A stretch of DNA of 64,000 nucleotides from a virus. Positions within the stretch are counted from its first letter, which is position 1. Each line of letters begins with the position of its first letter. Made by a program: the position numbers and the translations under genes. The notes beneath the pieces are model-generated. The model searched no databases. It saw only the letters and a list, made by a program, of their open reading frames with translations, and was not told the origin of the DNA. The stretch lies in the UHGV virus genome UHGV-1358930, one strand, 5' to 3'. Shown here one piece after another: positions 905 to 62,414 of this stretch.

Positions 905-1654
905 ATGAGTAAATTACGAAAGATCATTGTTTCAGAAATTGAGGACTACAGAGTTCTCTTGCGCAATGCGCCAGCTGTTACAATGATCTTTTTCTGTGTG
1001 TCTGTTATCTTAATGAACCTATTTGCGTCTAAAGAGCTACTAAATATTGAATATTTAGGGCTAGATTGCGGATTTTTGCTATCATGGCTCAGTTTTCTTT
1101 GCATGGATATGCTGACAAAGCGATTTGGTGCAAAACCCGCGATCAAACTTTCATTGTTTGCTGTTTTCCTCAACTTGCTTACATGTATATTCTTCTTTAT
1201 AGTTGCACACATCGGAAACAACTGGGCAGCTTTCTATACATACGAAAATGACATTGCTAACTCCGCTATAAATGAAACAATCGGAGGTACCTGGTATGTG
1301 TTAGTGGGATCAATGACTGCTTTCGTTGTTTCGTCAATTGTAAACGCACTGCTAAATGAAGGAATTGGTAAATTAGTTAAGAGGAAAAATTTTGTCGAAT
1401 ACGCTCTTAGGTCATATGCTTCTACAATGATTGGTCAGTTTGTAGACAATCTTGTTTTTGCAAGCTTAGTATCTAAGATTTTCTTTGGGTGGACATGGAA
1501 GCAGGTAGTATTTTGCTCACTCGCTGGAGCTATCGCAGAACTTCTATCCGAAGTAATTTTCAGCCCGATCGGATTTAAAGTTTGCAAGAAATGGGAGAAG
1601 CACAATGTAGGCGCGGATTATATCAAGTACACGCTTAGCAAAGAAAGGAGATAA
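905..1654 (+). CDS. Integral membrane protein, candidate YhhQ/DUF165-type queuosine-precursor (preQ0/preQ1) transporter
   Basis: Start follows the RBS AAAGGAG. The protein is 249 aa with multiple hydrophobic helices. It sits directly upstream of queF in the que cluster. Family assignment is from memory of YhhQ-like proteins and was not computed. Confidence 0.45.
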   Translation: MSKLRKIIVSEIEDYRVLLRNAPAVTMIFFCVSVILMNLFASKELLNIEYLGLDCGFLLSWLSFLCMDMLTKRFGAKPAIKLSLFAVFLNLLTCIFFFIVAHIGNNWAAFYTYENDIANSAINETIGGTWYVLVGSMTAFVVSSIVNALLNEGIGKLVKRKNFVEYALRSYASTMIGQFVDNLVFASLVSKIFFGWTWKQVVFCSLAGAIAELLSEVIFSPIGFKVCKKWEKHNVGADYIKYTLSKERR

Positions 1655-1660
1655 TTAAAC

Positions 1661-2341
1661 ATGTCAAATAACAAAGGAGTAGTAGTTGTAACTGGATCTT
1701 CTGGAGGTATTGGAGAGGCCATATGTAAAAAATTTCTATCCGAGGGGTTTGAAGTTCACGGAATTGATGTAGTAACTCCTTCGACAGAACTTCTACATGA
1801 TTTAAACTTCTATTCACACATAAACGATATTAGAAATTCTAATGATCTGCCAGACATTGACAAAGTGGAGTACTTGATCAATTGTGCAGGTACTCAAAAT
1901 TCATACGATGATATCGGAAATAATCTTATCGGTCTAATGAATACTACAGAGAAATATGGACTTCAATATTGGATTAAATCAATTGTAAACATGGCATCTG
2001 TATCCGCGCACAACGGATGTGAATTTCCTAAATACGTCGCGTCTAAAGGTGGTGTGCTCGCTTATACTATATGGACAGCCAAAGAAATTGCTACATACGA
2101 GAATCACCCAACATGTAACAGCCTATCATTTGGCGGAGTACTGACAGCACTTAATTCGGAAGTTATCTGTGACAAAGAAAAGTTCAACAAGATTATGGAC
2201 ATGACTCCGTTAAGGAAGTGGGCTACAGCTGAAGAGTGTGCAGAATGGACATACTTCATCTCAGTTGTAAATAAATCAATGTCAGGACAAGATATCATTA
2301 TCGATAACATGGAAACTAGAAACAATCAGTTTGTTTGGTAA
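1661..2341 (+). CDS. Short-chain dehydrogenase/reductase (SDR) family oxidoreductase
   Basis: N-terminal Rossmann motif TGSSGGIGEAI. Catalytic Ser (MASVSA) and YxxxK (YVASK) are present. Confidence 0.7.
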   Translation: MSNNKGVVVVTGSSGGIGEAICKKFLSEGFEVHGIDVVTPSTELLHDLNFYSHINDIRNSNDLPDIDKVEYLINCAGTQNSYDDIGNNLIGLMNTTEKYGLQYWIKSIVNMASVSAHNGCEFPKYVASKGGVLAYTIWTAKEIATYENHPTCNSLSFGGVLTALNSEVICDKEKFNKIMDMTPLRKWATAEECAEWTYFISVVNKSMSGQDIIIDNMETRNNQFVW

Positions 2342-2413
2342 AGTATTCAAAGAGAGTTTTGTATTCCTTTGAAACCCTCTCTGAAAATAAAAATAATAAG
2401 GAGAAGTAAAAAA

Positions 2414-3925
2414 ATGCTAAAATCAAACAATGGAAGAACATCCGAAGACTTATCAGGAGTAACTCTACTTGGTAATAACAACACTGAGTACAACTACGAC
2501 TATACTCCAGAAGTTCTAGAAACATTTGTAAACAAGCATCCTGACAACGATTATGTTGTCACATTTGATGCTTATGAATTTACAAGCAAGTGTGTCACCG
2601 GAGACACTATGATAGATGTTGCATGTAATGAAACTGACAATCCGGATGGAATTCCAATCAAAGATTTGGTAGGTACAGAAGGATATGTGTTTTGTGTAGA
2701 TCCCACTACATTACAACCATTATGTAGGAAGTATCGAGATGTACGAAAGACTGGAGAAAGTGTACCTGTAGTTAAAGTACTCATGCAAAGTTTGAGAACA
2801 GATGGAAAGGGTAACACATACTATGAATCTTCTGAAATCAAGTGTACACCTGATCATATGATATTGGTGAAAAAAGGATTCCATGATAGCGAATGGGTGT
2901 GTGCAAAAGATCTCAAACCTGGCATGAGGTTGATTGCAAATCAAAGAAGTGGAGATGTAATACGATCTAAACTTCGACACAGACTTATTGGGGAAGCAAT
3001 TTTTGATGAAGATATTATGAATATTCATCATATAGACGGTAATCATTACAATAATGACCCATCTAATCTATCTAATTTATCTTCTCATGATCATCACCAT
3101 CTTCATAGATCTCAAGAATATGGATACGATAATTTAGATGTATCATACTTAGTTGATCTGTATAACTCCGGAGAAAACTTCAACTCCATAGCAAAGATGT
3201 TCAACTGTGATGTATCTACCATTGAATCTAGAATAGGTAATATAGTTGGAAGACGGACACAATCAGAGTCATTATCACTACGAAATAACTTGTTGAATAA
3301 AGAGCGGGATAGCGAAATCTGTGAATTGTACAACAAAGGATACTTGCTATCTGAAATTGCAGATTACTTAAATATCCACAGTACAACAGTGTTAGGAGCA
3401 CTAGAAAGACACGGCATCCCTCGCAGAGAATCGAACTTCTCTAGGTACAATCGAAAGAAATTGAACCTCCCACCATTGAATCATAAAGTACTAGCTGTAC
3501 TAGATGGTGGATATGAAGATGTGTACAACATGGAAGTAGAAGGAGTTGAAAACTATTTTGCCAATGAAGTGATAGTCCATAACTGCCCAAAAACGGGGCA
3601 GCCAGATTTTGCAAAAGTTGTAATTAGTTACATTCCTAATGAGAGAATGGTTGAAAGCAAGTCCCTAAAGCTTTACCTCTTTTCTTTCCGCAATCATGGA
3701 GATTTCCACGAAGACTGCATGAACATCATCATGAAGGATCTAATTCATCTTATGGATCCGAAGTACATTGAAGTAAAAGGTATTTTTTCTCCAAGAGGAG
3801 GTATCTCCATCTTTCCCTTTGTTAACTACGCGAATCCGAAATTTAATTATCAGGATTTTGCAAAGTCTCGAATGCTGGAGGCGCTTAGAGATTCGAGCAA
3901 TAGAACAGTAAGATACGATATGTGA
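2414..3925 (+). CDS. queF: NADPH-dependent 7-cyano-7-deazaguanine (preQ0) reductase QueF, interrupted by an intein (precursor ORF)
   Basis: Exteins match B. subtilis QueF: GVTLLGN...PEVLETF...EFTS|[70 protein letters not shown] precedes the ATG at 2414. The ORF finder started 45 nt further upstream. Confidence 0.85.
2591..3583 (+). mobile_element. Intein (331 aa) with HNH homing-endonuclease and HTH modules inserted in QueF
   Basis: Begins [10 protein letters not shown] and ends VIVHN, followed by the +1 residue C of CPKTGQ. An internal HNH motif [11 protein letters not shown]...HDHHHLH is present, plus two sigma-region-4-like HTH repeats. Confidence 0.8.
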
Positions 3926-4023
3926 AACAACGGGAAGATATAAATATAGTAAAGTCTGTAGATACGTACAGCAAAAAAAAGCAGCAAACTCTAGAATAGA
4001 TTACAATTACTTAGAAAGGTTAG

Positions 4024-4767
4024 ATGAAAATGGAAAACAAAAGAAATTCAAACAAAAAAGCGTTGGTGCTCTCGTCAGGTGGAGTAGACTCCACTACTTG
4101 CGTAGGTATTGCTGTAAATGAATTAGGTTCTGAAAATGTTAGCACTGTATCGGTGTTTTATGGACAGAAACACAATAAAGAACTTGAATGCGCTGAAAAA
4201 GTAGCTGAATTTTATAATGTAAAGCACTATGTTCTTGACTTGTCTAATGTCCTTCAGTACAGCAACTGTTCTCTAATGAAGAACAGCACAGAAGAAATCC
4301 CTATGATGAGCTACGCAGAGCAGATTGAAAAGAATGGTAAACCATCAACAGAAGTTCCATTGAGAAATGGACTCATGCTCATGGCAGTTGGCTCATTAGC
4401 TATGCAACTTTATCCAGAAGCTGATGTCGATATTTACATTGGAGCACATGCCGATGATGCTGCAGGTAATGCTTATCCAGATTGCTCTGCAGAATTCATT
4501 CAAAACGTAAAAGAAGCAATATTGATTGGATCTAGATATAAAGTTAACTTAGTTTCTCCATTTGTGAATCATAACAAATCAGAAGTTGTTAAATTAGGGT
4601 TATCTATAGGTGCTCCGTATGAATTAACAACTTCCTGTTACAATGGCAGAGAGAAAGCTTGTGGATTGTGTGGAACCTGCAGAGATCGTATAGCTGCATT
4701 CAAAGCAAACAATGCAATTGACCCAATTGAATATGAAATTGACGACCCATTCAAAGAAATGCGATGA
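4024..4767 (+). CDS. queC: 7-cyano-7-deazaguanine synthase QueC
   Basis: PP-loop motif [14 protein letters not shown]-terminal zinc motif CGLCGTC. Confidence 0.85.
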
Positions 4768-17302: not shown

Positions 17303-17879
17303 TTGTATATATACACCATATTGTACATACAAACAATGCGACTTAGCTTGTCCTAATAGAGCTGAAGTGAATTGTTGGTTCAAACGATGCCGACTTGATA
17401 TGTCAAATAATTGCTTGCATACTAATATCCGAAATATTGAGAAAGCCGAGGATCTACTAAGTAACAAGTATGGAGAAACTGTGTGGTTTCCCACAGATAA
17501 TCCTTCAGATGCAAGCGACACTATTTGCTACGTAGCTATTTGCAAATATGGTAAAGGTACTGCTCTTGGAAACGGAATATACAATCTGGATTTTGCAAAA
17601 TTTATAGATATGATCAAGGAGTCCTGGAATACGCATTTTGAAACAGATAACTTAATTCAGATGCGTGTGTGGTCTTTGTCTGCAAATTACCTAGTTATCT
17701 CAAATCTAGATTATGTTAGATTTCAAGATTTTGAAAGTCAAACGTTGCTAAGGCTTCTGAATGATCGAAGAGATTATACAAAGACAACTGTAGTAGTTAC
17801 TAGTAAAGAACCTTTGGTCGGCAGCGGAAATTTCTTTCCTAGATTGACTTCTTTGCTAAAGGGGGTCAAGAGCAATTGA
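17295..17879 (+). CDS. Hypothetical Cys-rich protein (possible replication accessory or helicase-loader candidate)
   Basis: N-terminal Cys cluster CIYTPYCTYKQCDLACPNRAEVNCWFKRC. Translationally coupled to the helicase gene. Confidence 0.45.
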   Translation: MHDCIYTPYCTYKQCDLACPNRAEVNCWFKRCRLDMSNNCLHTNIRNIEKAEDLLSNKYGETVWFPTDNPSDASDTICYVAICKYGKGTALGNGIYNLDFAKFIDMIKESWNTHFETDNLIQMRVWSLSANYLVISNLDYVRFQDFESQTLLRLLNDRRDYTKTTVVVTSKEPLVGSGNFFPRLTSLLKGVKSN

Positions 17880-20299
17880 CGAATTCAGTAGAACTTCAAG
17901 TTATTTGTAAAATTTTAACAAGTCAAGATGATTCTGAAATTGATAGGCTGTGTGCGTTTGATGAATCCTATTACGCAGTATTCAAAGATCAGATCAAATT
18001 TATTCTAGATCATAGAGAAAAATATCATACTGTCCCAGACTTGTTTACGTTCCAAGCTCAATTCGAAGACATTGTTTTGATTGATGTAAACGAATCTGCA
18101 GATTTTTTAGTAGACGGACTTCGGAAAAACAAGCAGCAGATCATACTCTTACAAACATTCAATAAGCTATCTGAGTTAGGTTCTGCAGACGTTTCTGAAG
18201 CTTGGCAGTTCTTACAATCCCAATGCGACAAAGCTGCTCAACTTGATAATTCTAACCCGATGGATATCATCAAAGAAGCTCACAAGCGAAGTGATCAAGT
18301 TTTATCGCTAAGTAATCAAACAAGAATTCCTACAGGATTCAAAGAAGTAGATGAAACAATGTATGGAGGATTGTCAACTGTTGAAGAACTTTGTCTTGTA
18401 GTTGCTAGAACTAACACAGGTAAAGCTCAGCCTCTTTGGAGTAATATCTTAACACCTACTGGGTGGAAGCGTATGCGAGATATTCAAGTAGGAGACATTG
18501 TATGCGGTAGAGATAATGACAATGGTAAAGTAGTTCAAATATTTCCGCAAGGTACAATTGACTACTATCGTGTAAAGTTTGATGATGGTACTTATACGGA
18601 GTGTTCTGCAGATCATCTTTGGGAAGTTCTGGATAGTGAACGAAGGAAGCATGATAGAAAAACTTATGGTCAGTATCTTACATTGACTACTCGAGATATT
18701 CGGAATCATATGTATCGCAGATACTCTGTTGATATGTGTGAACAAATTGAATTCGAGAGTGCTTTTGATACAGATAGTGAACTTGACGGATATTTTTTAG
18801 GAGCATTTATCGGGCATGGTAGAAATGTAGGTAACAAGCTATATATTCATTCTCTGTCCGATGTTTCAAAGCGACGTATAATTGATGCATTGTCTAAATA
18901 TCGTTGTCAATTCACAGAAAATGATCCAAATACACTCGTGATTGAGGATAAGAATGATGGTAAGCTTATCCAAAAGATGTTCGAGTACAACTTGATGAAC
19001 TGCAAAGTCATTGATAGACATATTCCGGATATATATTTTCATAGCCCTGTAAATGTTAGAAAAGCTCTGTTATCAGGTCTCTGCGATACAGATAGCACAA
19101 TGTTATCAAAAAATCATAGAGGTTGGGTTTTCGTTACATCTTCAGATCAGCTTAAATCTGATTTTGTTTACATTGCTAGATCTTTAGGTGTAAAAGCAAA
19201 GGTGTCGACTGCAAGATCTGGTAGATGGGTTGACTTAGGTGTATCGCACGTTGCGAATACGTACCACAGGGTTATGTGTATCTCAAAATTCAATCCGTTT
19301 TATGGTTCACCAAATTACACAGAATTTGAACGCAGACAGGATAAAACTAAATTTAAAAATCGCAAGCGTGTTTGCAAATTCATTGATTCTATTGAATACG
19401 TAGGTAAGACGGAATGCCAGTGTATCATGGTAGACAATAAGACGCATACATATATTACAGATGATTTTATTGTCACACATAACACCTGGGTTACTACTAA
19501 GATGATGGAGTCTGCACAAGCGAATGGATTTCCTGTACTATATTATAGCCCAGAGATGCAATCTGCTTTCATTGGCACACGATTTGATACCTGGAGAGGT
19601 CACTTCCGAAATAGCGATATTCAACGAGGTAAATACAGCGAAGACTACATTCAGTACATCAAAGACATTGTTAAAGAGGAAACTGGTGCATTTGTTGCAG
19701 AAGACAAAGATATGCCAGGAGGAAAAACAACTGTCAGGTCGATTGAAACTCTAGTCAAGCGACATCATATAAAGCTTGTTATCATTGATGGTCTGTCTTA
19801 TATGGCAGATACAGAAAAGTCTGATAGCGATGTTATTAAGTATAAAAATATATGTACTGGACTATTCCGAATGTCTAAAACATATGGATGTGCTGTAGTA
19901 GTATCTGTACAAGCTAATAGAGACACTAAATCTAATGTCGATGACAAAGGAGTCCCGTGGCCTGATATGTATTCGATTGAAGGCTCAGACCATCCAGGAC
20001 GTATTGCAACTCAAGTATTTGCGCTTCGACAATTGTACGAAGAGCATACATTAGAGATAAAGCTGTTGAAGACTAGAAATGCAAAGAATGCAAATCCTAC
20101 GTTCGCATATGTATGGGATCCAAATACAGGAAACACAGAGTTTGTTTCGGATGATGCATCGGCTGCTCCTCCTTCTGCTCCTGCACAGCCTAGCAAGTTC
20201 TCAACGCCGACAGTGTCAGCAAAGATTGTACACACCGATATAGATGATAATCTAATCGATGCCAGTACAGATGACGATCTAGATGACGTTGAGTTTTGA
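17876..20299 (+). CDS. dnaB: DnaB-like replicative DNA helicase, interrupted by an intein (precursor ORF)
   Basis: Exteins read IPTGFKEVDETMYGGL..ELCLVVARTNTGK | TWVTTKMMESAQANGFPVLYYSPEMQ, i.e. Walker A GK|T split exactly by the insertion. Downstream DnaB motifs are KLVIIDGLSYM and SVQANR. The acidic C-terminal tail is DDDLDDVEF. Confidence 0.8.
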   Translation: MTNSVELQVICKILTSQDDSEIDRLCAFDESYYAVFKDQIKFILDHREKYHTVPDLFTFQAQFEDIVLIDVNESADFLVDGLRKNKQQIILLQTFNKLSELGSADVSEAWQFLQSQCDKAAQLDNSNPMDIIKEAHKRSDQVLSLSNQTRIPTGFKEVDETMYGGLSTVEELCLVVARTNTGKAQPLWSNILTPTGWKRMRDIQVGDIVCGRDNDNGKVVQIFPQGTIDYYRVKFDDGTYTECSADHLWEVLDSERRKHDRKTYGQYLTLTTRDIRNHMYRRYSVDMCEQIEFESAFDTDSELDGYFLGAFIGHGRNVGNKLYIHSLSDVSKRRIIDALSKYRCQFTENDPNTLVIEDKNDGKLIQKMFEYNLMNCKVIDRHIPDIYFHSPVNVRKALLSGLCDTDSTMLSKNHRGWVFVTSSDQLKSDFVYIARSLGVKAKVSTARSGRWVDLGVSHVANTYHRVMCISKFNPFYGSPNYTEFERRQDKTKFKNRKRVCKFIDSIEYVGKTECQCIMVDNKTHTYITDDFIVTHNTWVTTKMMESAQANGFPVLYYSPEMQSAFIGTRFDTWRGHFRNSDIQRGKYSEDYIQYIKDIVKEETGAFVAEDKDMPGGKTTVRSIETLVKRHHIKLVIIDGLSYMADTEKSDSDVIKYKNICTGLFRMSKTYGCAVVVSVQANRDTKSNVDDKGVPWPDMYSIEGSDHPGRIATQVFALRQLYEEHTLEIKLLKTRNAKNANPTFAYVWDPNTGNTEFVSDDASAAPPSAPAQPSKFSTPTVSAKIVHTDIDDNLIDASTDDDLDDVEF
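18425..19483 (+). mobile_element. Class-3-type intein (353 aa) with LAGLIDADG endonuclease domain in DnaB
   Basis: Starts with Ala (AQPLWSNILTPTGW) directly after GK of the P-loop. Ends FIVTHN followed by +1 Thr. The block B segment SADHLW, the Cys in block F (ECQCIMVD) and the Thr before HN form the WCT triad. LGAFIGHG and LSGLCDTDS are LAGLIDADG motifs. Confidence 0.75.
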
Positions 20300-20305
20300 T
20301 ATACT

Positions 20306-20340
20306 CCCGCCGAATCAATATTCGGCGGGTTTGCTTTGGT
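20306..20340 (+). terminator. Rho-independent terminator after dnaB
   Basis: CCCGCCGAAT-caat-ATTCGGCGGG 10-bp stem followed by TTTGCTTTGGT. Confidence 0.7.
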
Positions 20341-20514
20341 GCGATCGTTAGATAAACTAAGAAGGGAGTTAACATCACACCAGATTTGAAAATAAACATT
20401 AAATACCTTTATTTTCTTAATCTGTTCCTCTTTCAACGACCTTGCTTGACAAGTCAAGTCTTACTAGATCTCCAGAGGCGTTAATTTCCGCTTGTGCAGC
20501 GGTATTTGTTATTT

Positions 20515-21651
20515 TTAGGAGAAAGCTATTCTCAAGCCCTCGTTCAATATATTCTTTGATGCATTGATATCTCTATCATGTGTTGTTTGACAATTAGGAC
20601 AAGTCCAATTTCTAACTTCAAGATTTTTGACTTCTGGATTTTTGAATCCGCAACAGCTACAAGTTTGAGAAGACGGAAAGAAGGCGTCTATTTTGACAAG
20701 TTGTTTTCCATACCAGCTGCACTTGTAAGTCAATAGTTCAACGAATTTTGACCAGCTTGCGTCTGAAATTGCTCTTGCTAGTTTATGATTCTTGACCATA
20801 TTTTTGACTTTCAAGTCTTCAACACAGATTATGTCGTGGTTTTTGACAAATTCTGTTGACAGCTTGTGCAAGAAATCATTTCGTTGATTTGAAACTTTCT
20901 CAAATTGTTTAGCAAGTCTGATTCTTGATTTGTTTCTGTTATTAGATCCTTTTTGCTTCTTCGAGAGCTGTCTTTGAAGTCTTCTTAACTTCTTAGTAGA
21001 CTTTGAAAGGTATTTCGGATTTTTGATCTTTTCACCGTCTGAAGTTATTGCGAAATCTTTGATGCCGAGGTCAATTCCTACAACAGATCCAGTTTTGTCA
21101 AACTCTTCAATTTCAACATCTTTGCAACAGATACTTGCAAAATATTTTCCTGAAGCTGTTTTTGAGATGGTTGCCGAAAGCGGAGTTCCTTTGACATTTA
21201 AATTTCCTTTGAATTTAACCCATTTCAATTTAGGCAAGAAGATCTTGTTATCTAAACAATGAAATTGTGCAGGTGTGGAGTATGTAGCCTTATATGACTG
21301 TCTACTTGAAAGTTTCTTCTTAAATTTAGGATAACCTGGTTGCTTTCCATTCTTTACGTTTCTAAAGAAGTTTTGATACGCAGTATCAAGATCTCTAAGA
21401 GACGATTGCAAAGCCATTGCTTCAGGTTCTTTCAACCATGAATATTCGTCAAGCTTCTTGAGCTTTGTTAAATCTGCAGAATTTTGATTATATGTATTTG
21501 ACTTTCTTGCCTCTTCATAATCTTTGATGGATTTAGCAAGATAGTAGTTGTAGACAAATCTGCAGCAGCCAAAGGTTTTTGCAATTTGCTCAATCTGCTG
21601 CTTGTTCGGATATATCCGTATTTTATAAGCTTTCAGAATCATTTTGGTCAT
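20515..21651 (-). CDS. tnpB: TnpB (OrfB) RNA-guided-nuclease-family transposon protein
   Basis: N-terminus [32 protein letters not shown] is the OrfB_IS605 signature. RuvC-like and Zn-finger C-terminus [11 protein letters not shown]...[17 protein letters not shown]. Confidence 0.85.
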
Positions 21652-22243
21652 CTGAAAGTGCCTCCTTGATTTTAGCTACGCTTCTCTTAGAATACATTTT
21701 CATTGAGTAACAGTGCAGTAAACTTACGATTTCTTCAAAAATTTCTTCAGAATCAAGTTTTTCGGATCCTAGTTGGGACGCAACAACTATCTCTGTTCCA
21801 AATTTTCTAAAAAGATGATAAAATAGATCAAATCCTACTCTAGACAGTCTGTCTTTATAATTGATAACTACTTTCTCAACTTTATATTCCAATACATCGT
21901 CTAATAGTTCAAAAAACTGTTTTCTGTTTTCAAAAGAAATTCCGGAAGCAACCTCTTGAAAAACACCATCGACTTGAATTCCGGAATTCATGCAAAAACT
22001 GTTCAAAGATTCAAGTTGGTTCGCTAGATCCGATTTTTGAGATATTGTAGAAACTCTAGCGTAGATATAATTTTTTCTTGTTTGACCGTTATTTAATATA
22101 GAGTAGACGTCTTTATCATGATAGATGCGCTTACCTGTAGGTGTTAAGTCATAATGAATGAGTCCTCTTTTGCAATAATGACCAAGTGTTGGCTGTGAAA
22201 TATTCAATAGTTGTAACACTTGTTTAGCTTTCATATTGATCAC
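21623..22243 (-). CDS. tnpA: IS607-type TnpA serine recombinase
   Basis: N-terminal MerR-like [25 protein letters not shown]. Resolvase catalytic motif [11 protein letters not shown]. Overlaps the tnpB start. Confidence 0.8.
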
Positions 22244-22304
22244 CTCAAAATAATTTAAGGTTAAAAAATAATATCATCTTAATATAAAAAAGGAAATGCT
22301 ATAT

Positions 22305-23303
22305 ATGAATATTGATACCATAATTGATAAACTTTCATCTCAAGGGTTTATACGCCTAAATAGGCATATAGGCGACTACTATAGCTGCTATTGCCCATTT
22401 CACAGTGATGGAAAAGAGAAAAAGCCGTCCTCTGGTATATTGCTAAGAGACCAGTATCGCAATGGACAGCACTATCCTGCTGGATTCTTTAACTGTTTCA
22501 CTTGTCACCATGCATATCAACTGGAAGAGTTCATCACAGAGCTATTGAAAGTTAATTCTATCCACATGTCTGGTAGAGATTGGCTCATCAAGAATGATCC
22601 AGATTATGATCCAGATACAGAATTTGAATATCTCTTACCTAGAGATATGATGCAGTCTGTCGTGAATTCTTTTGCATTAAAGCAGATATCTAGTAAGTCG
22701 GGAGTTCAAAAACCTTCATTCATATCTGAGTCAGAACTTTCTAAGTATAGATACACAGTACAGTATATGTATGACCGAAAACTTACAGACACTGTGATCG
22801 ACTTATTTGACGTAGGGTTTGATGCTAATTTCGTTCCAGCAGGAAGAAAGAAATCAGTTCCATGCGTCACATTCCCGGTAAGAGATGTCCACGGAAATAC
22901 GCTGTTCATCTGCAGACGATCGATTGAAGGAAAATCATTCTATCTACCGTCAAACATAGAAAAATCTGTATATGGGCTGTATGAATTACCTCAAGGATGT
23001 AAATCTGTTATCATCGCGGAAAGCTGCTTCAATGTTCTAACTTCTTACGTTTACGGTGTACCTGCTGTAGGTCTACTAGGTACTGGTACTCCTCATCAGA
23101 TTTCTCAGCTTAGAAGTTTAGGTGTAAATGAGTTTGTATTAGGATTAGATCCAGATGAAGCAGGAGATAGAGCTTGCAAGCGATTGAAACGAGCACTCGG
23201 CGATATTGCTATTATCCGACGCATGAATGGAATACCTGAAGGAAAAGATATAAATGACCTCACCAAGTCTGAATTTTTAGACATATACAGAAGTAGAATG
23301 TGA
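22305..23303 (+). CDS. DNA primase (DnaG-like zinc-binding plus TOPRIM)
   Basis: Zinc motif CPFHSDGKEKKPS...CFTCH. TOPRIM segments VIIAESCFNVLTSYVYGVPAVGLLGTG and GLDPDEAGDRA. Confidence 0.8.
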   Translation: MNIDTIIDKLSSQGFIRLNRHIGDYYSCYCPFHSDGKEKKPSSGILLRDQYRNGQHYPAGFFNCFTCHHAYQLEEFITELLKVNSIHMSGRDWLIKNDPDYDPDTEFEYLLPRDMMQSVVNSFALKQISSKSGVQKPSFISESELSKYRYTVQYMYDRKLTDTVIDLFDVGFDANFVPAGRKKSVPCVTFPVRDVHGNTLFICRRSIEGKSFYLPSNIEKSVYGLYELPQGCKSVIIAESCFNVLTSYVYGVPAVGLLGTGTPHQISQLRSLGVNEFVLGLDPDEAGDRACKRLKRALGDIAIIRRMNGIPEGKDINDLTKSEFLDIYRSRM

Positions 23304-23844: not shown

Positions 23845-25035
23845 TTGAATTATGCTTGGATGTTGAGGCAAGACGGTACGGCATTCAGCTGCACACATCA
23901 TTTATATTGCATGGATGACGACGATTTATCTTCTGAAGCAGAGTGTGCTGCATTTATTTTAAATAGCAACTCTAAAGATTCTAAATTAGCCGAATTGATT
24001 CTAGACGCTTGGATGGCATTAGGGATTGAAAACTCTGTCAACTACGATGCGGATGAAGAAGACATTGAAAATGCAATCATCAAATTTGCAAACTCCGTTC
24101 CATATCATTTTCAATTTGAGTTAAAGTTAAGCAAGCTGTTACAGATTCACAAATCTGCACATAATTATAGCGATGTGGACAGCTTGTATGAGTTCTGTGA
24201 CTATGTTAGATCTGAGTTATCTACGCTTCAAAGACAGATAAAACATTCTATCAATCAGCAGTTTTGTAGAGTTAGATTTGGAGGGCAGTATGACTCAATC
24301 AATCCTACTAGCACACTTTGGTTTAGAATCTCTAGTGTAGGATTCAATTGGGCTGATACTATATACATTTTCGCTTCAGAATGCAAGAAGTCTTATCATG
24401 TAGCATACATTACCATATGTAGAGATCATGAATCTGACAATGGTATAGATTCAGACGCAGATGAATATTTCTACAAGGCTCGAGATGGAGCTATCTATTA
24501 CAACATGCCGATTGAAGAGTTCCTTGCTGAAGAACATGAACATTCTTTAGTATTTTCTAACAAGCAGATAAATGTCATGAAGGGCTACGTGAAGACCATT
24601 AGAGATTGCTTCAAGTTTGGTAAAACCGAGCAAGAAACTGCAGATATTTTATTGTCGCACGATATTAACTATGATCCGATGATGTGGGATAGATTGAAGA
24701 ATAGAGACAGAGCGCGTTTCTGTATTGCAGCGTCACAATACTTTGATGAGGCAAACAACAGGACAAAGAACCGATTGAACAAGATTATGAATATGATCAT
24801 CAATCGCTACCCTGAAATCAAATCTGTGGATATTGACTACAAATACAGAGACAAGGTGAGAGGTAAAACACCTGGATGCGAATATCTATTCTATTTGACA
24901 TCTAACTTTGATGAAATTGATAGACTAGAAATATCAACTGTATTCAATCGTCTAGAAACAAACCCGGATATTATCTTTAGAAGATTCAAACAGGAATATG
25001 AATCGTATAAAGAATACTCAAACTTGAATATCTAA
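23845..25035 (+). CDS. Hypothetical protein (396 aa)
   Basis: Long ORF with phage-like codon usage. No motif recognised. Confidence 0.5.
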   Translation: MNYAWMLRQDGTAFSCTHHLYCMDDDDLSSEAECAAFILNSNSKDSKLAELILDAWMALGIENSVNYDADEEDIENAIIKFANSVPYHFQFELKLSKLLQIHKSAHNYSDVDSLYEFCDYVRSELSTLQRQIKHSINQQFCRVRFGGQYDSINPTSTLWFRISSVGFNWADTIYIFASECKKSYHVAYITICRDHESDNGIDSDADEYFYKARDGAIYYNMPIEEFLAEEHEHSLVFSNKQINVMKGYVKTIRDCFKFGKTEQETADILLSHDINYDPMMWDRLKNRDRARFCIAASQYFDEANNRTKNRLNKIMNMIINRYPEIKSVDIDYKYRDKVRGKTPGCEYLFYLTSNFDEIDRLEISTVFNRLETNPDIIFRRFKQEYESYKEYSNLNI

Positions 25036-25165: not shown

Positions 25166-25858
25166 ATGGCTAAGAGAATCAGATTCAACGATATTTCCCG
25201 TTTCGACAAAAACAACAGAAGAAGAATTGCTCATGGCTCAGATCCTATTCCGGTTGTTAGACCCTTCCGTGCAGCGTATCTGATGTTCCGTGACTATCTC
25301 GATTATGACAGACCGCTGACTTATAATGAATGGATGAATCGTCTGGAATCAGATAAGGCAGCGGCTTTATATGTTCAGTTCTACGATCAGATTCAGCTTG
25401 CTTGGTACAAAGCAAAAAGCTTCTATGCTGTTGAAGAAGATGGCGTGTCTACAATGATGCAATATCTTATGAAGAATGTTCCTGTCATCAACAAAGACGA
25501 AAAGCGCTTCACACCTCGTTATATATATCGTGTAGCTTACAACTGCTTGTATTGCATCTGTCATGACATCAAAGTTGATAAAGACAGATGGGAGTTAGAG
25601 AGCAGCAATATTACATCTAATTCCGATGAAGAAGAAGTAGATGTGTTCAATTTCATTCCGTCTAATTTTGACATTGAGCGAATGATGAATGAAGAAAAAT
25701 TCTGGAAGGCTATCATGTCTCAAGACGAAGATACAATTACATATGTGGATTGCGTCATCAATCATACAAGATTTCCTGCGGGTATGAAAGCTAGAAGTCC
25801 TAAGATCATCGCAAAGTTAAAGGTAGTTCTTTCAGAACTGGCTGATGAGGAGTTCTAA
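25166..25858 (+). CDS. Hypothetical protein
   Basis: RBS GGAGG sits 8 nt before the ATG at 25166. The ORF-finder start at 25151 is a TTG inside the RBS. Confidence 0.5.
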   Translation: MAKRIRFNDISRFDKNNRRRIAHGSDPIPVVRPFRAAYLMFRDYLDYDRPLTYNEWMNRLESDKAAALYVQFYDQIQLAWYKAKSFYAVEEDGVSTMMQYLMKNVPVINKDEKRFTPRYIYRVAYNCLYCICHDIKVDKDRWELESSNITSNSDEEEVDVFNFIPSNFDIERMMNEEKFWKAIMSQDEDTITYVDCVINHTRFPAGMKARSPKIIAKLKVVLSELADEEF

Positions 25859-25859
25859 A

Positions 25860-26285
25860 ATGAAACGTACTATCACTCAAAGTATACGAGTAGAGCTCAG
25901 CTATCTGATGAAGCTAAACGGAAAGCCTCTATTGAATTCACATGCCTATCGAGTTGAAGCTACGATTTGCAATAATTCTAACATTGGCAGGATGATGGAT
26001 TTCGAGGATATATCAAAACTACTGTTTGAGGCTATCCCAACGAATTCATTTCTCATTTCTACATCAAGCGAAGAAGCTGAGTTAGAAGTAGCTAAAGCGC
26101 TGAAGCAGTTTGGAGTTCCTGTAATTGTATATTCTGAAGAGCTCTGTACAGAGAACTTGTTGATGCTATTCGTCAAATCCATAAATCAAAAACTAGCAGA
26201 ATATTCAGACAGTTTAAGTTCATACGAACTGGTAGAGCTTAAGCTTTGGGAAACCGATAATTATTGTGCTACTTACGTAGCATAA
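25860..26285 (+). CDS. Hypothetical protein
   Basis: RBS GAGGAG before the ATG at 25860. Confidence 0.5.
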   Translation: MKRTITQSIRVELSYLMKLNGKPLLNSHAYRVEATICNNSNIGRMMDFEDISKLLFEAIPTNSFLISTSSEEAELEVAKALKQFGVPVIVYSEELCTENLLMLFVKSINQKLAEYSDSLSSYELVELKLWETDNYCATYVA

Positions 26286-38003: not shown

Positions 38004-39170
38004 ATGTCAGCATACGACGACATCATAAACAGAAAAAAGAAGGAATGGGCAGCCGAAGATTTGATGGAAGGAGCCAAGCATTCTAGAGGAAAGAAAATTC
38101 CGTTTTCTTCACCTTTGATGAACTGGGCTACATACGGAGGCATTCCAAGAGATAAAATTACGGAATTCTTTGGTGAGCCGTCAGGGGGTAAGTCGACTTC
38201 GGCTGTAGACATTTGCAAGAATGCTTATCCTATCTTCAAAGAAGAGTATGAAGCTAGAATGAATGAGCTACGTGACATTGCAAAGACTGGAAACAAATCC
38301 GCAGCAAGCGAGCTAGAAGATTTAGAGGAAACCGGACCGAAGAAAATCCTATACATTGACCTAGAACATTCATTTGATAGCGCATGGGCAGACACAATCG
38401 GTATAAAACCAGATGAAATTGAAATCATGCAGCCGCCAGATGTTGTCGCAGAGGACATTCTCCAGACTGTTCAAGATTTGATAAGTACTGGAGAAGTCGG
38501 ACTAGTTGTACTTGATTCTATTCCATCGCTTGTACCTAGAGCTGAACTAGAGAAGAAATATGGAGAACGAACTGTAGCATCACTGGCTGGATTGCTAACT
38601 ATTTTCTTTAGAAAGATTGTTCCTATGTTAACTCGATATGGGTGCACACTCATTTTTATCAATCAGATTCGTCAGAACATGGATAATCCATATGTAGTAA
38701 AGACTCCAGGAGGCGAAGCTCCTAAGTTCTATGCGTCTCTTCGTATCTTGTTCCAAATTGGACAGCCTGTTGACTTCTTAGGGAACGAACTTCCAAAGAG
38801 TTCGGAAAACCCAGCTGGATACATTGTAAATGCAAAGATATCTAAGCAGAAAAGCGCACCGAACGATCGTCGAAATGCTTCATATTTCTTGATGTGTCAA
38901 TCTGGTATCCGAGAAGATATGGACTTTGCGAATCTTGCTATGAAGAAGTACGGCATCATTCGCAAAGGAGGTGCTTGGTTTGGTTTTGTCGATCCATATA
39001 CTGGTGAAGCTCTTGAAGAAGACGGCAAGATTGTAAAAGTAAACGGTATGACAAAAGTTTATGAGTACTTAAAGAGTAATCAAGCTTACTATCAGAAATT
39101 AAAGAAATATATCATTGATGATATAAACGGGACAGACGAAGCAGTGTCTCGAGAATCTGATTTAATTTAA
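38004..39170 (+). CDS. RecA-family recombinase (RecA/UvsX-like)
   Basis: GGIPRDKITEFFGEPSGGKSTSA (Walker A), LYIDLEHSFD and VVLDSIPSLVPRAELE. Size 388 aa. Confidence 0.8.
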   Translation: MSAYDDIINRKKKEWAAEDLMEGAKHSRGKKIPFSSPLMNWATYGGIPRDKITEFFGEPSGGKSTSAVDICKNAYPIFKEEYEARMNELRDIAKTGNKSAASELEDLEETGPKKILYIDLEHSFDSAWADTIGIKPDEIEIMQPPDVVAEDILQTVQDLISTGEVGLVVLDSIPSLVPRAELEKKYGERTVASLAGLLTIFFRKIVPMLTRYGCTLIFINQIRQNMDNPYVVKTPGGEAPKFYASLRILFQIGQPVDFLGNELPKSSENPAGYIVNAKISKQKSAPNDRRNASYFLMCQSGIREDMDFANLAMKKYGIIRKGGAWFGFVDPYTGEALEEDGKIVKVNGMTKVYEYLKSNQAYYQKLKKYIIDDINGTDEAVSRESDLI

Positions 39171-53748: not shown

Positions 53749-54015
53749 TTGATATATTATAAGAATACATCATCTAGATCACTTACATTTTACAATGTAA
53801 CTTTTGGTCCAGGGGACATCAAACCTGTTCCGGATTACATAAATAGATCATGCATGATTAGATGCGATGAACCCAAGCAAACTTCTCCTAAGCCTAAGGC
53901 CGCAGCTGAAAAGCATGCATCTACAAAATCATCTGCCGTAGTAGATGTAAAGTTCAAATCTGATAAACAAATTGAGCAAGGAGGAAATGCTAATGGCTCA
54001 GATAAATATTTCTGA
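53749..54015 (+). CDS. Hypothetical small protein (TTG start)
   Basis: 88 aa, RBS GAGGTGAATAC. Overlaps the next gene start. Confidence 0.4.
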   Translation: MIYYKNTSSRSLTFYNVTFGPGDIKPVPDYINRSCMIRCDEPKQTSPKPKAAAEKHASTKSSAVVDVKFKSDKQIEQGGNANGSDKYF

Positions 54016-55917: not shown

Positions 55918-55933
55918 TTGAGGTAATATATTG

Positions 55934-58069
55934 ATGTCAACTAAGATATGTAAGATATGCGGTAAATCATTTGAGTCTAAGTCATCTAGACGTTCTGTTT
56001 GCTATGAGGATCATTATCATCCTTGTCCTGTTTGTGGTAAACTAACTATAGGAAATGATATGCAACATTTGAATTCTTGCTGCTCAATCGAGTGTTCTAG
56101 GAAGAAAGCGTCTGATACTACGCATGAAACATACGATGAATGGCCTTCCAATTCTAGTAGTGCGAAGCAAAAGAGAGCAGAAACTAATGTGCAGAAATAT
56201 GGAGTCGATAATCCTTCTAAGCTACCTGATGTGAAATCGCAGATATCTAGTAGTTTGAAAGCTACGTGGCAAACTCAAAAAGATAACATACTATCCAAAA
56301 CTGAACAAACTTGCTTAGACAAGTACGGTCAAACACACTACATGAAATCTGATGAAGGCAAACAACACGTATCTGATGTATTTACTGAAAAGTATGGAGT
56401 TAAAACCAGCTTGCTGTCCGATATTGTGAGAGATAAGATAGAGAAAACCAACCTGGAAAAATATGGATCTGCGAATCCACTTTCATCTGCAGATATACGA
56501 GACAAAGTAAAGCAGACCAATATGCTTCGATACGGATATCAATACTCTGCTAGTTCACCAGAAATTAGAGAAAAGATGAAATCTACTATGGTGAAACGAT
56601 ACGGTGTGAAATATCCGCTTCAGTCTGATGTGATATTGAAACGTGCCAAGGAAACATTCTCAAGTCATATGGAGTCAGAATCGTTTAGGCAGCAGAGGCA
56701 AGAGAATACAGAAGCTACTAACATGGCTCGATATGGGACTAAATCTGCAATGTCGAACATCGAAATTCAAGCACGCATTCAGTTCACTAATTTATCTCGA
56801 TATGGTGTAGCAAGCTATACAGCTTCTGACGATTTCAAACAAAAACGCCTGAAAACTTTCAAGATAAAATATGGATCAGATAATCCGATGAAGTCTGAAG
56901 CAGTCAAACAACGATTATCGGAAACGATGAAATCTAGATACGGTGTTCAACATGCAAGTCAACTGAACATGCCTGATATATCTAAAATTGACGAGTTGAT
57001 TAAGTTTAGGTCAGATCCTGCTCAATACATATCTTCATTACCCGAAAGCGAAAGAACAGAATCAATCATAGCTGATAAACTTGGTGTCACTTCAAGCGCT
57101 GTTTCTAACTATGTTGTACAAGATAATCTCCATCATCTAGTAAGTTATAGCAAAAGCACCGTGGAAGATGAAGTTGCTAATTTTTTGAGTCAGAACAATG
57201 TCAGTTTCCTTCGTAACTGTAGATCTGTCATATCTCCGTATGAACTCGATTTTTATTTACCTGATAGACAGTTAGCTATTGAATGCAATCCGACGGTAAC
57301 GCATAACTCTTCATTTCATGATCCGTGGAATGGCAATGCGAAATCCCCTTCATACCACAAAATGAAAACAGATATGTGCGAGAATGACGGCATATTTCTA
57401 TTTCATATTTTTGGCTATGAATGGACGTATAGAAAAAATATAATATTATCTATGTTGTCTTCCTTACTACATAGATCCAGTCGAAAAATCTACGCCAGAA
57501 ACACATATGTGGCTGAAATTGATCCAGCAGAATGCGCTGAATTTTTAGAATCTAATCATAGACAAGGCGGAAGATTGTCAGCAAGTATTCGATTAGGACT
57601 GAGATCTAAGGACACCAATGAGTTAGTATCTGTAATGACATTCAACAAAATTAGAAATACTATCGGATATACAGGTCAAGCAGGTGTAGAACTATCTAGA
57701 TTCTGTTCTTCACTCAACACGTCAGTTGTAGGAGGAGCCAGTAAGCTTTTTACACATTATCTGAACAACATACATTCCGATGAATTAGGTAAAATTATTT
57801 CGTTTTCTGATAGAGCACATACACGAGGTAACTTATATTCAAAGTTAGGATTTGTACCTGTTAATGTATCAAATCCAGGATACGTCTGGGTAAGTATGGT
57901 AGATGATTCATATTACAATAGAGTATCTTGTCAGAAACGTAATTTACAGAAGCTGTTTAACGATACTCGTATAGACGTTGATAATCAAACAGAACGTCAG
58001 ATAATGGAATCTCATGGCTATGCTCAGGTGTTTGATTCTGGAACAATCAGATGGGAATACCTTAACTGA
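55934..58069 (+). CDS. Paralog A of a zinc-ribbon / KYG-repeat / conserved C-terminal-domain protein family
   Basis: N-terminus CKICGKSF..C..H..CPVCGK...CCSIEC. About ten tandem ~37-aa units [KR]YG.....S.E[IV]R.K.K.T. C-terminus shares LAIECNPTVTHNS..PWNG..YH, RQGGRL, VVGGASKLF and FSDR..GN.YSK.GF motifs with the 60756-62414 product. Confidence 0.7.
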   Translation: MSTKICKICGKSFESKSSRRSVCYEDHYHPCPVCGKLTIGNDMQHLNSCCSIECSRKKASDTTHETYDEWPSNSSSAKQKRAETNVQKYGVDNPSKLPDVKSQISSSLKATWQTQKDNILSKTEQTCLDKYGQTHYMKSDEGKQHVSDVFTEKYGVKTSLLSDIVRDKIEKTNLEKYGSANPLSSADIRDKVKQTNMLRYGYQYSASSPEIREKMKSTMVKRYGVKYPLQSDVILKRAKETFSSHMESESFRQQRQENTEATNMARYGTKSAMSNIEIQARIQFTNLSRYGVASYTASDDFKQKRLKTFKIKYGSDNPMKSEAVKQRLSETMKSRYGVQHASQLNMPDISKIDELIKFRSDPAQYISSLPESERTESIIADKLGVTSSAVSNYVVQDNLHHLVSYSKSTVEDEVANFLSQNNVSFLRNCRSVISPYELDFYLPDRQLAIECNPTVTHNSSFHDPWNGNAKSPSYHKMKTDMCENDGIFLFHIFGYEWTYRKNIILSMLSSLLHRSSRKIYARNTYVAEIDPAECAEFLESNHRQGGRLSASIRLGLRSKDTNELVSVMTFNKIRNTIGYTGQAGVELSRFCSSLNTSVVGGASKLFTHYLNNIHSDELGKIISFSDRAHTRGNLYSKLGFVPVNVSNPGYVWVSMVDDSYYNRVSCQKRNLQKLFNDTRIDVDNQTERQIMESHGYAQVFDSGTIRWEYLN

Positions 58070-60718: not shown

Positions 60719-60757
60719 AAAGAGCAGGCAACGATTGTCTGCTCTGTTTTGCTGTTT
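60719..60757. terminator. Bidirectional terminator between convergent genes
   Basis: AGAGCAG-gcaacgattgt-CTGCTCT stem followed by GTTTTGCTGTTT. Confidence 0.55.
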
Positions 60758-62414
60758 ACCTGAACTCGTATACAAGCTGACCACAATCATATACAGGAAG
60801 CCATCCATGTTCAATCATGAGCTCATCGTTTGATACACCTTTACCAAAATTAGTTCCAAACAGCTGGTCATAACCTCTTTGTCGAAGAAGATTGGCAGTT
60901 ATTTTATTCTTTCCTTTTGACCAAACCTCTTGAGGAGGAGTTGTTCTAACTAACGTCATTCCAATCTTTTCATAAACATTTCCTAAAAACTTAGACCTAT
61001 CACAGTAAGATATTATACTAGATACTCCAAAGTTTTCAGTAGCAAATTTGAAAAGCTTAGACGCACCTCCTACAACATTGTATCCAGGAAGAGAACATAG
61101 CCTAAGTAACTCTACATCATGCGTCTTGTCGTATCTGGATTTACCAAATGTCATAACCTGATACAGTACATTATCTTTAACTAGACCTAAGCAAAGCAGC
61201 TGCCCTCTACAAGTTCCTTGAAAATGATACTTTGACAAAAATTCGTCTGCAACTTTCGTATTAAGCTTGTATATCGATAAATTCCTGGCAAACACAGATT
61301 TTCTTTTACAGAGAGACTGAATTATTTTATCTGAATCATCCCAGTCAAATATATGAATACATCTGTATCCAGATTCTTCAGCAATCCGAGATTTATCTCT
61401 ATGATAGCTAATTTTAACACCAGGTCCTCCCCATGGATTTTTCAAAGCATTATGAGTGTAAGATGGATCAATCTCAATCAATGTCTTTTCATCATTTAAC
61501 GCAATGTCGAAGAATTTTCCATCTAGATAAAATTCAAAGCTACTATCTATTCCAGATGCTAAAAGCTTGTCATGAAATGTTACAGCTATCTTTGAAATCT
61601 TACTTATACTCTCTTGAGCTGAAGGTACAAGACATCCATACGGAACTCCATACTTCTGTATACAACTTTCTTTTGCTTTCTTCATCAATTCTGATGGATG
61701 AGACGGATCATCTACACCATATCTAGATAAAAAAGTTGATTTTGCTTTATCATCAATCTCTTTGGGCCAAAATTCACCGTAGTTCTCTATTCTTGTTTTT
61801 ATCGCAGACATACACACATCTTTATCTTTCATAGCGTTAGAGAACCCATATTTATCTAAACATGCTTCCTCCATTTTCTTCTTAAACAATTCAATCTTCA
61901 TTGGATTGCTATTTCCATATTTCGACGACATCGTCAACTCAATCTTTTTTCTTAATTCTTCAGATTGCATAGATGTAGGAGCGCCATATCGTTCTGTCAT
62001 CGTTTGCTTTATTTTATCACGAACCTCAGAAGATCCTAAAGCCCAATCTGAACCAAATTTATCCCTATTCGTTTTCATTGCTTTTTGTTTTATCTCATCG
62101 GATTTAAGCGGAGAATCTACACCATATTTATCTAGCATTGCTTGCTTGTGATGCATCTGAACGTCTTTGTTTTGCATCGGATGTTCACATCCATATTTGA
62201 TAATGTTGTTACGTCGGGTTTGTTCCTTCTTACATTCTCTGCTACACGGTTCTATTTTTCTAGTTGTGTTCCATATCATCGGCTTACCGCATATAGGACA
62301 GGTAGATACATGAGATTTAGAACAAATACGTGACGAAGGCGCATCTGGTAAAAATAACTCTCCACATATTGCACATGGTTTCAACTTTTTAGGCTTGCTG
62401 TATCTTGGATTCAT
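60756..62414 (-). CDS. Paralog B of the zinc-ribbon / KYG-repeat / conserved C-terminal-domain family
   Basis: N-terminus CAICGELF..C..H..CPICGK...CSREC. Nine KYG/RYG repeats. C-terminus IEIDPSYTHNALKNPWGGPG..YH, CRGQLL, VVGGASKLF and CDRSKFLGNVYEKIG. RBS AAGGAGAAG. Confidence 0.7.
   Translation of the reverse strand: MNPRYSKPKKLKPCAICGELFLPDAPSSRICSKSHVSTCPICGKPMIWNTTRKIEPCSRECKKEQTRRNNIIKYGCEHPMQNKDVQMHHKQAMLDKYGVDSPLKSDEIKQKAMKTNRDKFGSDWALGSSEVRDKIKQTMTERYGAPTSMQSEELRKKIELTMSSKYGNSNPMKIELFKKKMEEACLDKYGFSNAMKDKDVCMSAIKTRIENYGEFWPKEIDDKAKSTFLSRYGVDDPSHPSELMKKAKESCIQKYGVPYGCLVPSAQESISKISKIAVTFHDKLLASGIDSSFEFYLDGKFFDIALNDEKTLIEIDPSYTHNALKNPWGGPGVKISYHRDKSRIAEESGYRCIHIFDWDDSDKIIQSLCKRKSVFARNLSIYKLNTKVADEFLSKYHFQGTCRGQLLCLGLVKDNVLYQVMTFGKSRYDKTHDVELLRLCSLPGYNVVGGASKLFKFATENFGVSSIISYCDRSKFLGNVYEKIGMTLVRTTPPQEVWSKGKNKITANLLRQRGYDQLFGTNFGKGVSNDELMIEHGWLPVYDCGQLVYEFR

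Follow-up and report, generated by a model that had tools for sequence, protein, structure and literature searches.

The window analysed here, a stretch of 64,000 nucleotides from the virus genome UHGV-1358930, carries two neighbouring plus-strand genes, one for an intein-containing DnaB-type helicase (17876-20299) and one for a Toprim primase (332 aa, ATG at 22305), and between them lies a transposable element. Both of its open reading frames are on the minus strand within 20515-22243, tnpA upstream and tnpB downstream, and a comparison of filled with empty alleles confines the element proper to 20376-22304, that is, to 1929 bp. An earlier note on this DNA had recognized an IS607-family tnpA-tnpB element between the helicase and primase genes, reading antisense to all flanking phage genes; the family profile NF033518 and domain scans agree with this identification, and the orientation is correct. 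The span that it gave, 20345-22290, captured a real element with misplaced boundaries, taking in 29-31 nt of phage DNA and missing 14 nt of the left end.

Genes of the element

The two genes, which overlap by 29 nt, are:

21623-22234, minus strand: tnpA, IS607-type serine transposase, 203 aa from ATG; alternative GTG start at 22243
20515-21651, minus strand: tnpB, predicted RNA-guided endonuclease, 378 aa

The same gene layout is found in the related loci L098-L102 and L171-L184, and the ATG start of tnpA is likelier than the GTG, as the ribosome-binding site GAGGTGA precedes the ATG. In a scan against NCBIfam profiles, TnpA scores 173.6 bits with NF033518, 'IS607 family transposase' (cut-off 110). 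Its Resolvase domain spans residues 59-195 and exceeds the Pfam cut-off; N-terminal to it, a MerR-type helix-turn-helix (HTH) at residues 7-41 is matched by Pfam models below their cut-offs. The serine motif reads YARVSTISQ at residues 58-66 (YARVST 58-63), so that the MerR-HTH and YARVSTxxQ described previously are both recovered, the former sub-threshold.

TnpB has the expected OrfB-type N-terminus and RuvC/zinc-finger C-terminus, family scans returning the domains HTH_OrfB_IS605, OrfB_IS605 and Cas12f1-like_TNB. It passes NF038281, 'IS200/IS605 TnpB', with 514 bits (cut-off 425), scores 389 bits with NF040570, and falls short of the IS607_TnpB model NF038280 (208 bits, cut-off 350), so that it is not assigned to that sub-type. 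This shortfall fits the published view that the association with serine TnpA is polyphyletic on the TnpB tree, where the 'typical' or ISDra2 clade holds both Y1-1 and Ser-1 branches. We considered whether a serine TnpA beside an ISDra2-like TnpB might be a novelty, and rejected this, since the polyphyletic association is already in the literature. The protein can be aligned from end to end with ISDra2 TnpB in the structures 8BF8, 8EXA and 8H1J (E = 3e-111), keeps the RuvC triad D194, E278 and D361 (aligned to ISDra2 D191/E278/D361) and has the zinc-finger cysteines C331, C334, C351 and C354. Every copy that we examined, including one that has lost tnpA, encodes a full-length TnpB with D-E-D triad and zinc finger intact, and the inactivating RuvC substitutions that the earlier note had allowed for are absent. 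Judged from sequence, the element has all of the testable features that define the IS607 family and TnpB, with the exception of the NF038280 sub-type model.

To have called such an element unusual in a phage was an overstatement, because TnpB relatives were confirmed in 95 viral stretches and 73 phage records of GenBank contain IS607-type TnpA relatives. Large lytic phages are among these records, which include Campylobacter CP21, Lactobacillus 521B and Listeria LPJP1. A known transposon family gains an ordinary further member, and IS607/TnpB in a phage is in itself unsurprising. That the phage is virulent, as had also been stated, is not established by a window that covers 64 kb of a ~160-kb phage.

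Boundaries and recency of the insertion

Comparing empty sites with filled sites gives the exact boundaries of the element. The filled allele reads GTTAAC-AT-[1929 bp]-AT-GAATATT and the empty allele GTTAAC-AT-GAAT, with these junctions:

20374-20375: core dinucleotide AT at the right-end junction, from the empty versus filled site; the AT overlap is repeated at a second site
22305-22306: core AT at the left-end junction, with which the primase ATG (22305-22307, plus strand) begins

There is thus a single AT at each junction and one AT in the empty site, with no further target duplication. Terminal inverted repeats are absent, and the two ends are not inverted copies of each other. On the phage side, the element lies between the primase ribosome-binding site (AAGGGAG, 20362-20368, plus strand) and the primase ATG.

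The nearest viral contig, IMGVR_UViG_3300029032_000001 (L001), matches the window with 96-98% identity on either side and lacks positions 20373-22302. Many metagenomic contigs, 130-167 kb long and at least in part from human gut samples, encode the primase protein unchanged. At all ten places with an identical primase among the matches listed, helicase and primase genes are adjacent and insertion-free, and nine of these ten empty sites read exactly ...GGGAGTTAAC|ATGAATATT (GTTAAC|ATGAAT). Conversely, the exact TnpA sequence occurs on five contigs, each time at the primase site, and the two elements compared are 99.6-99.95% identical to that of the window. With ten identical-primase contigs empty, five filled at the same site and two copies nearly identical to the one studied here, the insertion at the primase start is recent, and it is a presence/absence polymorphism among otherwise near-identical phages. 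The suspicion of a recent arrival was therefore well placed, and a search for empty sites in related genomes, which had been proposed as a check, does find them.

A single mismatch to L001 beside the right-end junction was considered as a sign of an imprecise junction or an escape mutation and rejected, as nine of the ten other empty sites have the base of the window. Megablast of 19300-23300 against GenBank phages returned no near-identical match, and the closest cultured relatives by primase (phiCTP1, Dp-1 and C. sporogenes phages) reach only 26-38% identity.

Copies at other sites and the target motif

Sites occupied by relatives of the element define what precedes its left end. Two places in the window are concerned:

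22305-22309, minus strand: predicted transposon-adjacent motif (TAM) and transposase target TTCAT (element strand); TCAT in 10/10 and TTCAT in 8/10 insertions
53927-53932, plus strand: unoccupied second target site AATCAT|CTGCCG, filled in IMGVR_UViG_3300029032_000001

No second copy was found inside the 64-kb window. IMGVR_UViG_3300029032_000001 carries a 1.3-kb, tnpA-deleted copy (94.6% nucleotide identity) where the window has an empty site, CAAAATC-AT-CTGCCG (53921-53938); this copy keeps the last 18 codons of tnpA and an intact tnpB, whose product is 97% identical to that of the window. Full tnpA-tnpB copies with TnpB identities of 77-93% occupy eight further sites in related large phage contigs, which brings the independent insertion sites of the sub-family to ten, the window and nine others. 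The 6-mers that precede the element are ATTCAT (five sites), GTTCAT (two), CTTCAT, AATCAT and GCTCAT, so that TCAT stands invariably, and TTCAT at eight sites, directly 5' of the left end. In 11 copies, ...TCTGNNGTGAT closes the right end, after which the flanks are mutually unrelated. The AT overlap recurs in a more distant sub-family (L101/L102, TnpB 62%), where empty sites in two other contigs reveal it, and the upstream motif there is TCTAT.

An empty site for the L098 element was looked for and not found, and the ends of the L100 and L185 sub-families could not be delimited. An exact search of viral contigs with the right-end 18-mer recovered only the copy of IMGVR_UViG_3300029032_000001 and chance matches.

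Several copies have particular surroundings. In seven contigs, a copy of the sub-family (L177-L181, ~1845-3777) splits the gene for an NAD-dependent DNA ligase in the sense orientation, and its right-end junction, GTG-ATG-ACC, makes a possible restart codon for the C-terminal part. The tnpA-deleted copy and the L175 copy are inserted beside DUF7487-family genes, of which the window has two large paralogues on opposite strands (55931-58069 and 60756-62414).

The right end and its predicted omega-RNA

The non-coding right end and the phage sequence beyond it are divided as follows:

20376-20514, minus strand: right end, non-coding, predicted omega-RNA scaffold; 139 nt from the tnpB stop to the boundary
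20488-20502, minus strand: scaffold stem A of the omega-RNA fold
20445-20458, minus strand: hairpin enclosed by a long-range stem CCUCU/AGAGG in the omega-RNA fold
20381-20424, minus strand: terminal AU-rich hairpin of the omega-RNA fold, a 44-nt palindrome
20376-20380, minus strand: tail GUGUG (then AU), which runs to the element boundary
20354-20373, minus strand: predicted 20-nt omega-RNA guide GTTAACTCCCTTCTTAGTTT (element strand), phage flank past the right end, shared with empty sites

A non-coding right end of 174 nt had been expected here; the element contributes 139 nt of this, and the rest, up to the hairpin at 20306-20329, is phage DNA with the primase ribosome-binding site. The right end folds better than shuffled sequence (z = -2.7). 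In an alignment with 26 relatives (27 sequences with the window), mostly viral-contig loci of IS605 type or with a solo tnpB, compensatory changes affect both sides of 11 of the 13 pairs in the consensus structure. This covariation supports the view that the right end encodes an omega-RNA-like scaffold, in the place where the earlier note had expected one. The palindrome that it had singled out is likewise real, CTTGAC-AA-GTCAAG forming a conserved scaffold hairpin that is longer in L101; it lies at 20445-20458, one base away from the position first given (20444-20457).

Beyond ...GAAGCAGGAA, the scaffold of the IS605-type relatives runs on into a short GC-rich hairpin and then the element-ending tail ...GGTTCAA. 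In the sub-family of the window, by contrast, a 44-nt AU-rich palindrome and GUGUG-AU (...GTGAT in the DNA) take the place of that hairpin and tail. Since the conserved part of the scaffold stops ~50 nt before the boundary, we considered an internal guide and rejected it, as the IS605-type relatives have a hairpin and tail in this interval and the window an AU-rich hairpin. The guide would instead be the phage sequence at 20354-20373, a position that follows the paradigm of IS605/IS607 TnpB, and this stretch includes the displaced primase ribosome-binding site.

The left end and insertion at start codons

The left end is short and is followed directly by the primase ATG:

22235-22304, minus strand: left end, 70 nt by junction mapping; tnpA ribosome-binding site GAGGTGA, motif TTTTTTAACCT and an outward AGGA

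Its motif TTTTTTAACCT recurs inverted in the right end, in the form TTYTTAAYCT within the AU-rich terminal stretch, which suggests that this stretch doubles as a transposase binding site. As a separate observation, the tnpA ribosome-binding region TGAGGTGAT (22238-22246, element strand) resembles the right-end terminus TG(G/A)(T/C)GTGAT (20374-20382) in all copies compared; the likeness may be a coincidence or a secondary recombination site.

Half of the ten insertions (window, L172, L173/L174, L176 and L184) are exactly at the start codons of antisense phage genes, namely those for the primase, a 396-aa protein homologous to window 23845-25035, a clamp-loader subunit, a 72-aa protein and a CHAP/lysozyme protein. 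ATGAA reads TTCAT on the complementary strand, so that insertion at a gene start separates the ribosome-binding site from the ATG and leaves the element antisense, and the presence of AT at both junctions keeps the primase ATG. For the start-codon insertions, each predicted guide is complementary to the ribosome-binding site that was displaced. The outward AGGA lies on the plus strand at 22291-22294, 10 nt before the primase ATG, and might take over as its ribosome-binding site, the left-end tip thus keeping the primase translated. The element itself is well delimited and clearly recent; this ribosome-site idea is speculative, the most speculative step in our account.

We regard it as an even matter whether the AGGA is instead only a binding or crossover site for the transposase, with the primase translated from some other signal or only poorly, and survivorship alone behind the start-codon pattern. 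Short transposase-binding repeats are typical of IS607 ends, and AGGA may simply be part of the TnpA binding site; the L101 sub-family, with its TAM TCTAT, shows that this type of element works without the motif at its left-end tip. Only ~6 of 329 TTCAT sites in the window are at starts of open reading frames, and as most of the others are inside genes, purifying selection among tolerated insertions could by itself enrich start-codon sites and explain much of the enrichment. These points count against a ribosome-site role, and others tell for it: AGGA(A/G) is held outward at 8-10 nt from the core AT in 10/10 left-end tips while the neighbouring bases vary, it is AGGAGG in L173, a start-codon copy, and it is missing from the very sub-family whose TAM is no start-codon complement.

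A wider reading builds on this: that the IS607 sub-family evolved to colonise gene-dense phage genomes without splicing, through a target that complements the start context, an AT core that preserves the ATG, a portable ribosome-binding site, and TnpB homing during co-infection with the displaced ribosome-binding site as guide. We hold it to be doubtful. If true, it would mean that essential genes (primase, clamp-loader subunit, lysin) stay translatable after insertion. The locus in any case lets one ask whether a DNA transposon can part the start codon of an essential gene from its ribosome-binding site and bring a ribosome-binding site of its own.

Proposed mechanism and alternatives

The best explanation overall, to which we give a probability of roughly 0.85, is that an autonomous 1929-bp IS607-family insertion sequence, together with a shared AT, recently transposed into a ~160-kb human-gut phage, with TnpA and TnpB presumed to act as in the C. 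botulinum IStron and ISDra2. We propose that strand exchange by TnpA at the AT core both excises the element and inserts it, with TTCAT as the preferred target; the ten distinct insertion sites and the presence/absence polymorphism are indirect evidence for such movement. The tnpB transcript would be processed to an omega-RNA whose 3' end reads out past the right end into the guide GTTAACTCCCTTCTTAGTTT. TnpB with this RNA would then cut the empty allele, where TTCAT directly abuts the guide-matching sequence (TTCAT + GTTAACTCCC...), as it does in nine of the ten empty sites, and the filled allele would be spared, its right end finishing in GTGAT and not in TTCAT. Recombination with an element-bearing genome, in replication or co-infection, could restore or spread the element in a homing-like manner; the phage encodes a UvsX-like recombinase at 38004-39170.

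Several points weigh against this account. The activity of TnpB, the TAM and the use of the guide rest on homology, and the conserved TTCAT could reflect transposase preference alone. The terminal scaffold hairpin is unlike that of the IS605-type relatives, so that RNA loading is not guaranteed, and Rfam gave no match at E <= 1 in 19800-22800 and none at the gathering threshold in the whole window. A promoter scan, in which matches were no better than in shuffled sequence, found no outward-facing promoter in the left end, and transcription of the primase would have to cross 1.9 kb of antisense element. Nuclease action could also be affected if the phage DNA is modified. A 7-deazaguanine/queuosine-pathway cluster at 905-4767 and ~25845-26285, which comprises a Vut_1 transporter-like gene, QueF, QueC and a PTPS/QueD-like gene, suggests that it may be.

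The first three of these points leave some weight to the alternative that TnpA alone moves the element, TnpB and its RNA being inactive or irrelevant and the TTCAT flank a matter of transposase target choice, all the more so as sequence analysis cannot separate TAM from TnpA target. We nevertheless consider it unlikely: the full-length TnpB keeps its catalytic triad and zinc finger in every examined copy, even where tnpA is deleted, the scaffold carries compensatory changes, and the difference between a GTGAT right end and a TTCAT target is of the self/non-self kind known from the C. botulinum IStron. Far less probable is a gene pair fixed in the phage and domesticated, as a TldR-like regulator or an anti-competitor nuclease, for although phage-encoded domesticated relatives of TnpB exist in the literature and the element sits in the replication module, the identical-primase contigs among the matches listed all have empty sites (10/10), the ends are discrete, copies stand at nine other sites, tnpA is present and the RuvC residues are intact. 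[quoted passage not shown]

Comparison with known systems

CboIStron of C. botulinum (Zedaveinyte et al., bioRxiv 10.1101/2023.11.20.567912), which has been characterised by experiment, is the closest guide to the proposed mechanism. There, strand exchange by TnpA takes place at a 2-bp core, TGGG is specified by both TnpA and TnpB, and the guide begins right past the right end, which reads TCGG and leaves the filled site uncut. The window element resembles it in combining a serine TnpA with TnpB, in having a 2-bp core at both junctions without inverted repeats or target duplication, and, as predicted, in a TAM that equals the transposase target including the core, a guide just outside the right end, and a right end that is a near-TAM differing at -3 (TCGG versus TGGG in CboIStron, GTGAT versus TTCAT here). 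In contrast to CboIStron, its core is AT and not GG, its predicted TAM is (T)TCAT and not TGGG, it has no group I intron, its TnpB falls in the ISDra2-like group, and its host is a large gut phage.

With ISDra2 (IS200/IS605; PDB 8H1J, 8EXA, 8BF8) it shares a TnpB that aligns at full length with the RuvC and zinc-finger residues, a scaffold architecture common to IS605-type relatives, and, as predicted, a T-rich TAM of 5 nt. The predicted TAM is TTCAT as against TTGAT in ISDra2, and the partner transposase is a serine recombinase in place of a Y1 HUH enzyme. The IS607 element of Helicobacter pylori and IS1535 (Chen et al., eLife 2018, PMC6188088) have a GG core and little further target preference. 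The inverted domain order of TnpA (N-terminal HTH, C-terminal catalytic domain), the short sub-terminal repeats, the absence of target duplication and the exchange over a 2-bp core are common to all three, whereas the window element has an AT core and a preference that extends 4-5 nt upstream. By sequence, then, what sets it apart from characterised members is its AT core and (T)TCAT target, a terminal hairpin that has been substituted, and the absence of an intron. An IS607/TnpB pair with an AT core and TTCAT specificity would offer a compact ISDra2-like nuclease with a possibly different TAM.

The homing endonuclease genes and inteins of large phages likewise show presence/absence polymorphism between near-identical phages, and spread by cleavage of the empty allele and recombination is predicted here as it is for them. 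Unlike theirs, recognition by the window element would be RNA-guided and re-programmed at each new site, and the element has its own transposase. The locus offers a clean natural example of a transposase and RNA-guided nuclease element as a presence/absence polymorphism in a phage population, and with exact boundaries and ten target sites defining the motif, TnpB-driven homing between co-infecting phages becomes directly testable.

Other mobile elements in the phage group

Inteins accompany the element. The intein of the 807-aa DnaB-type helicase includes a homing-endonuclease domain (Pfam Hom_end, residues 383-448), the host protein resumes after the intein with ...VTHNT, and all close relatives have the same 807-aa intein form. 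The QueF-like gene at 2369-3925 also holds an intein (Intein_splicing and HTH; insert ~2584-3580), and IMGVR_UViG_3300029032_000001 (L100) is without this ~1-kb insert, a second presence/absence polymorphism of a selfish element.

IMGVR_UViG_3300029032_000001 carries a further IS607-type tnpA-tnpB pair close to what corresponds to the left edge of the window (L100 4001-5699), with its own strong promoter-like sequence; TnpA and TnpB of this pair are 65% and 59% identical to those of the window element. Finally, the phage group of the window hosts several unrelated TnpB elements: L163 (5053-6424) and L167 (5100-6471) carry a different, antisense solo tnpB (363 aa) next to an HTH_26 gene. It is inserted some hundreds of bases downstream of the primase, at a position equivalent to just past 23632 of the window.

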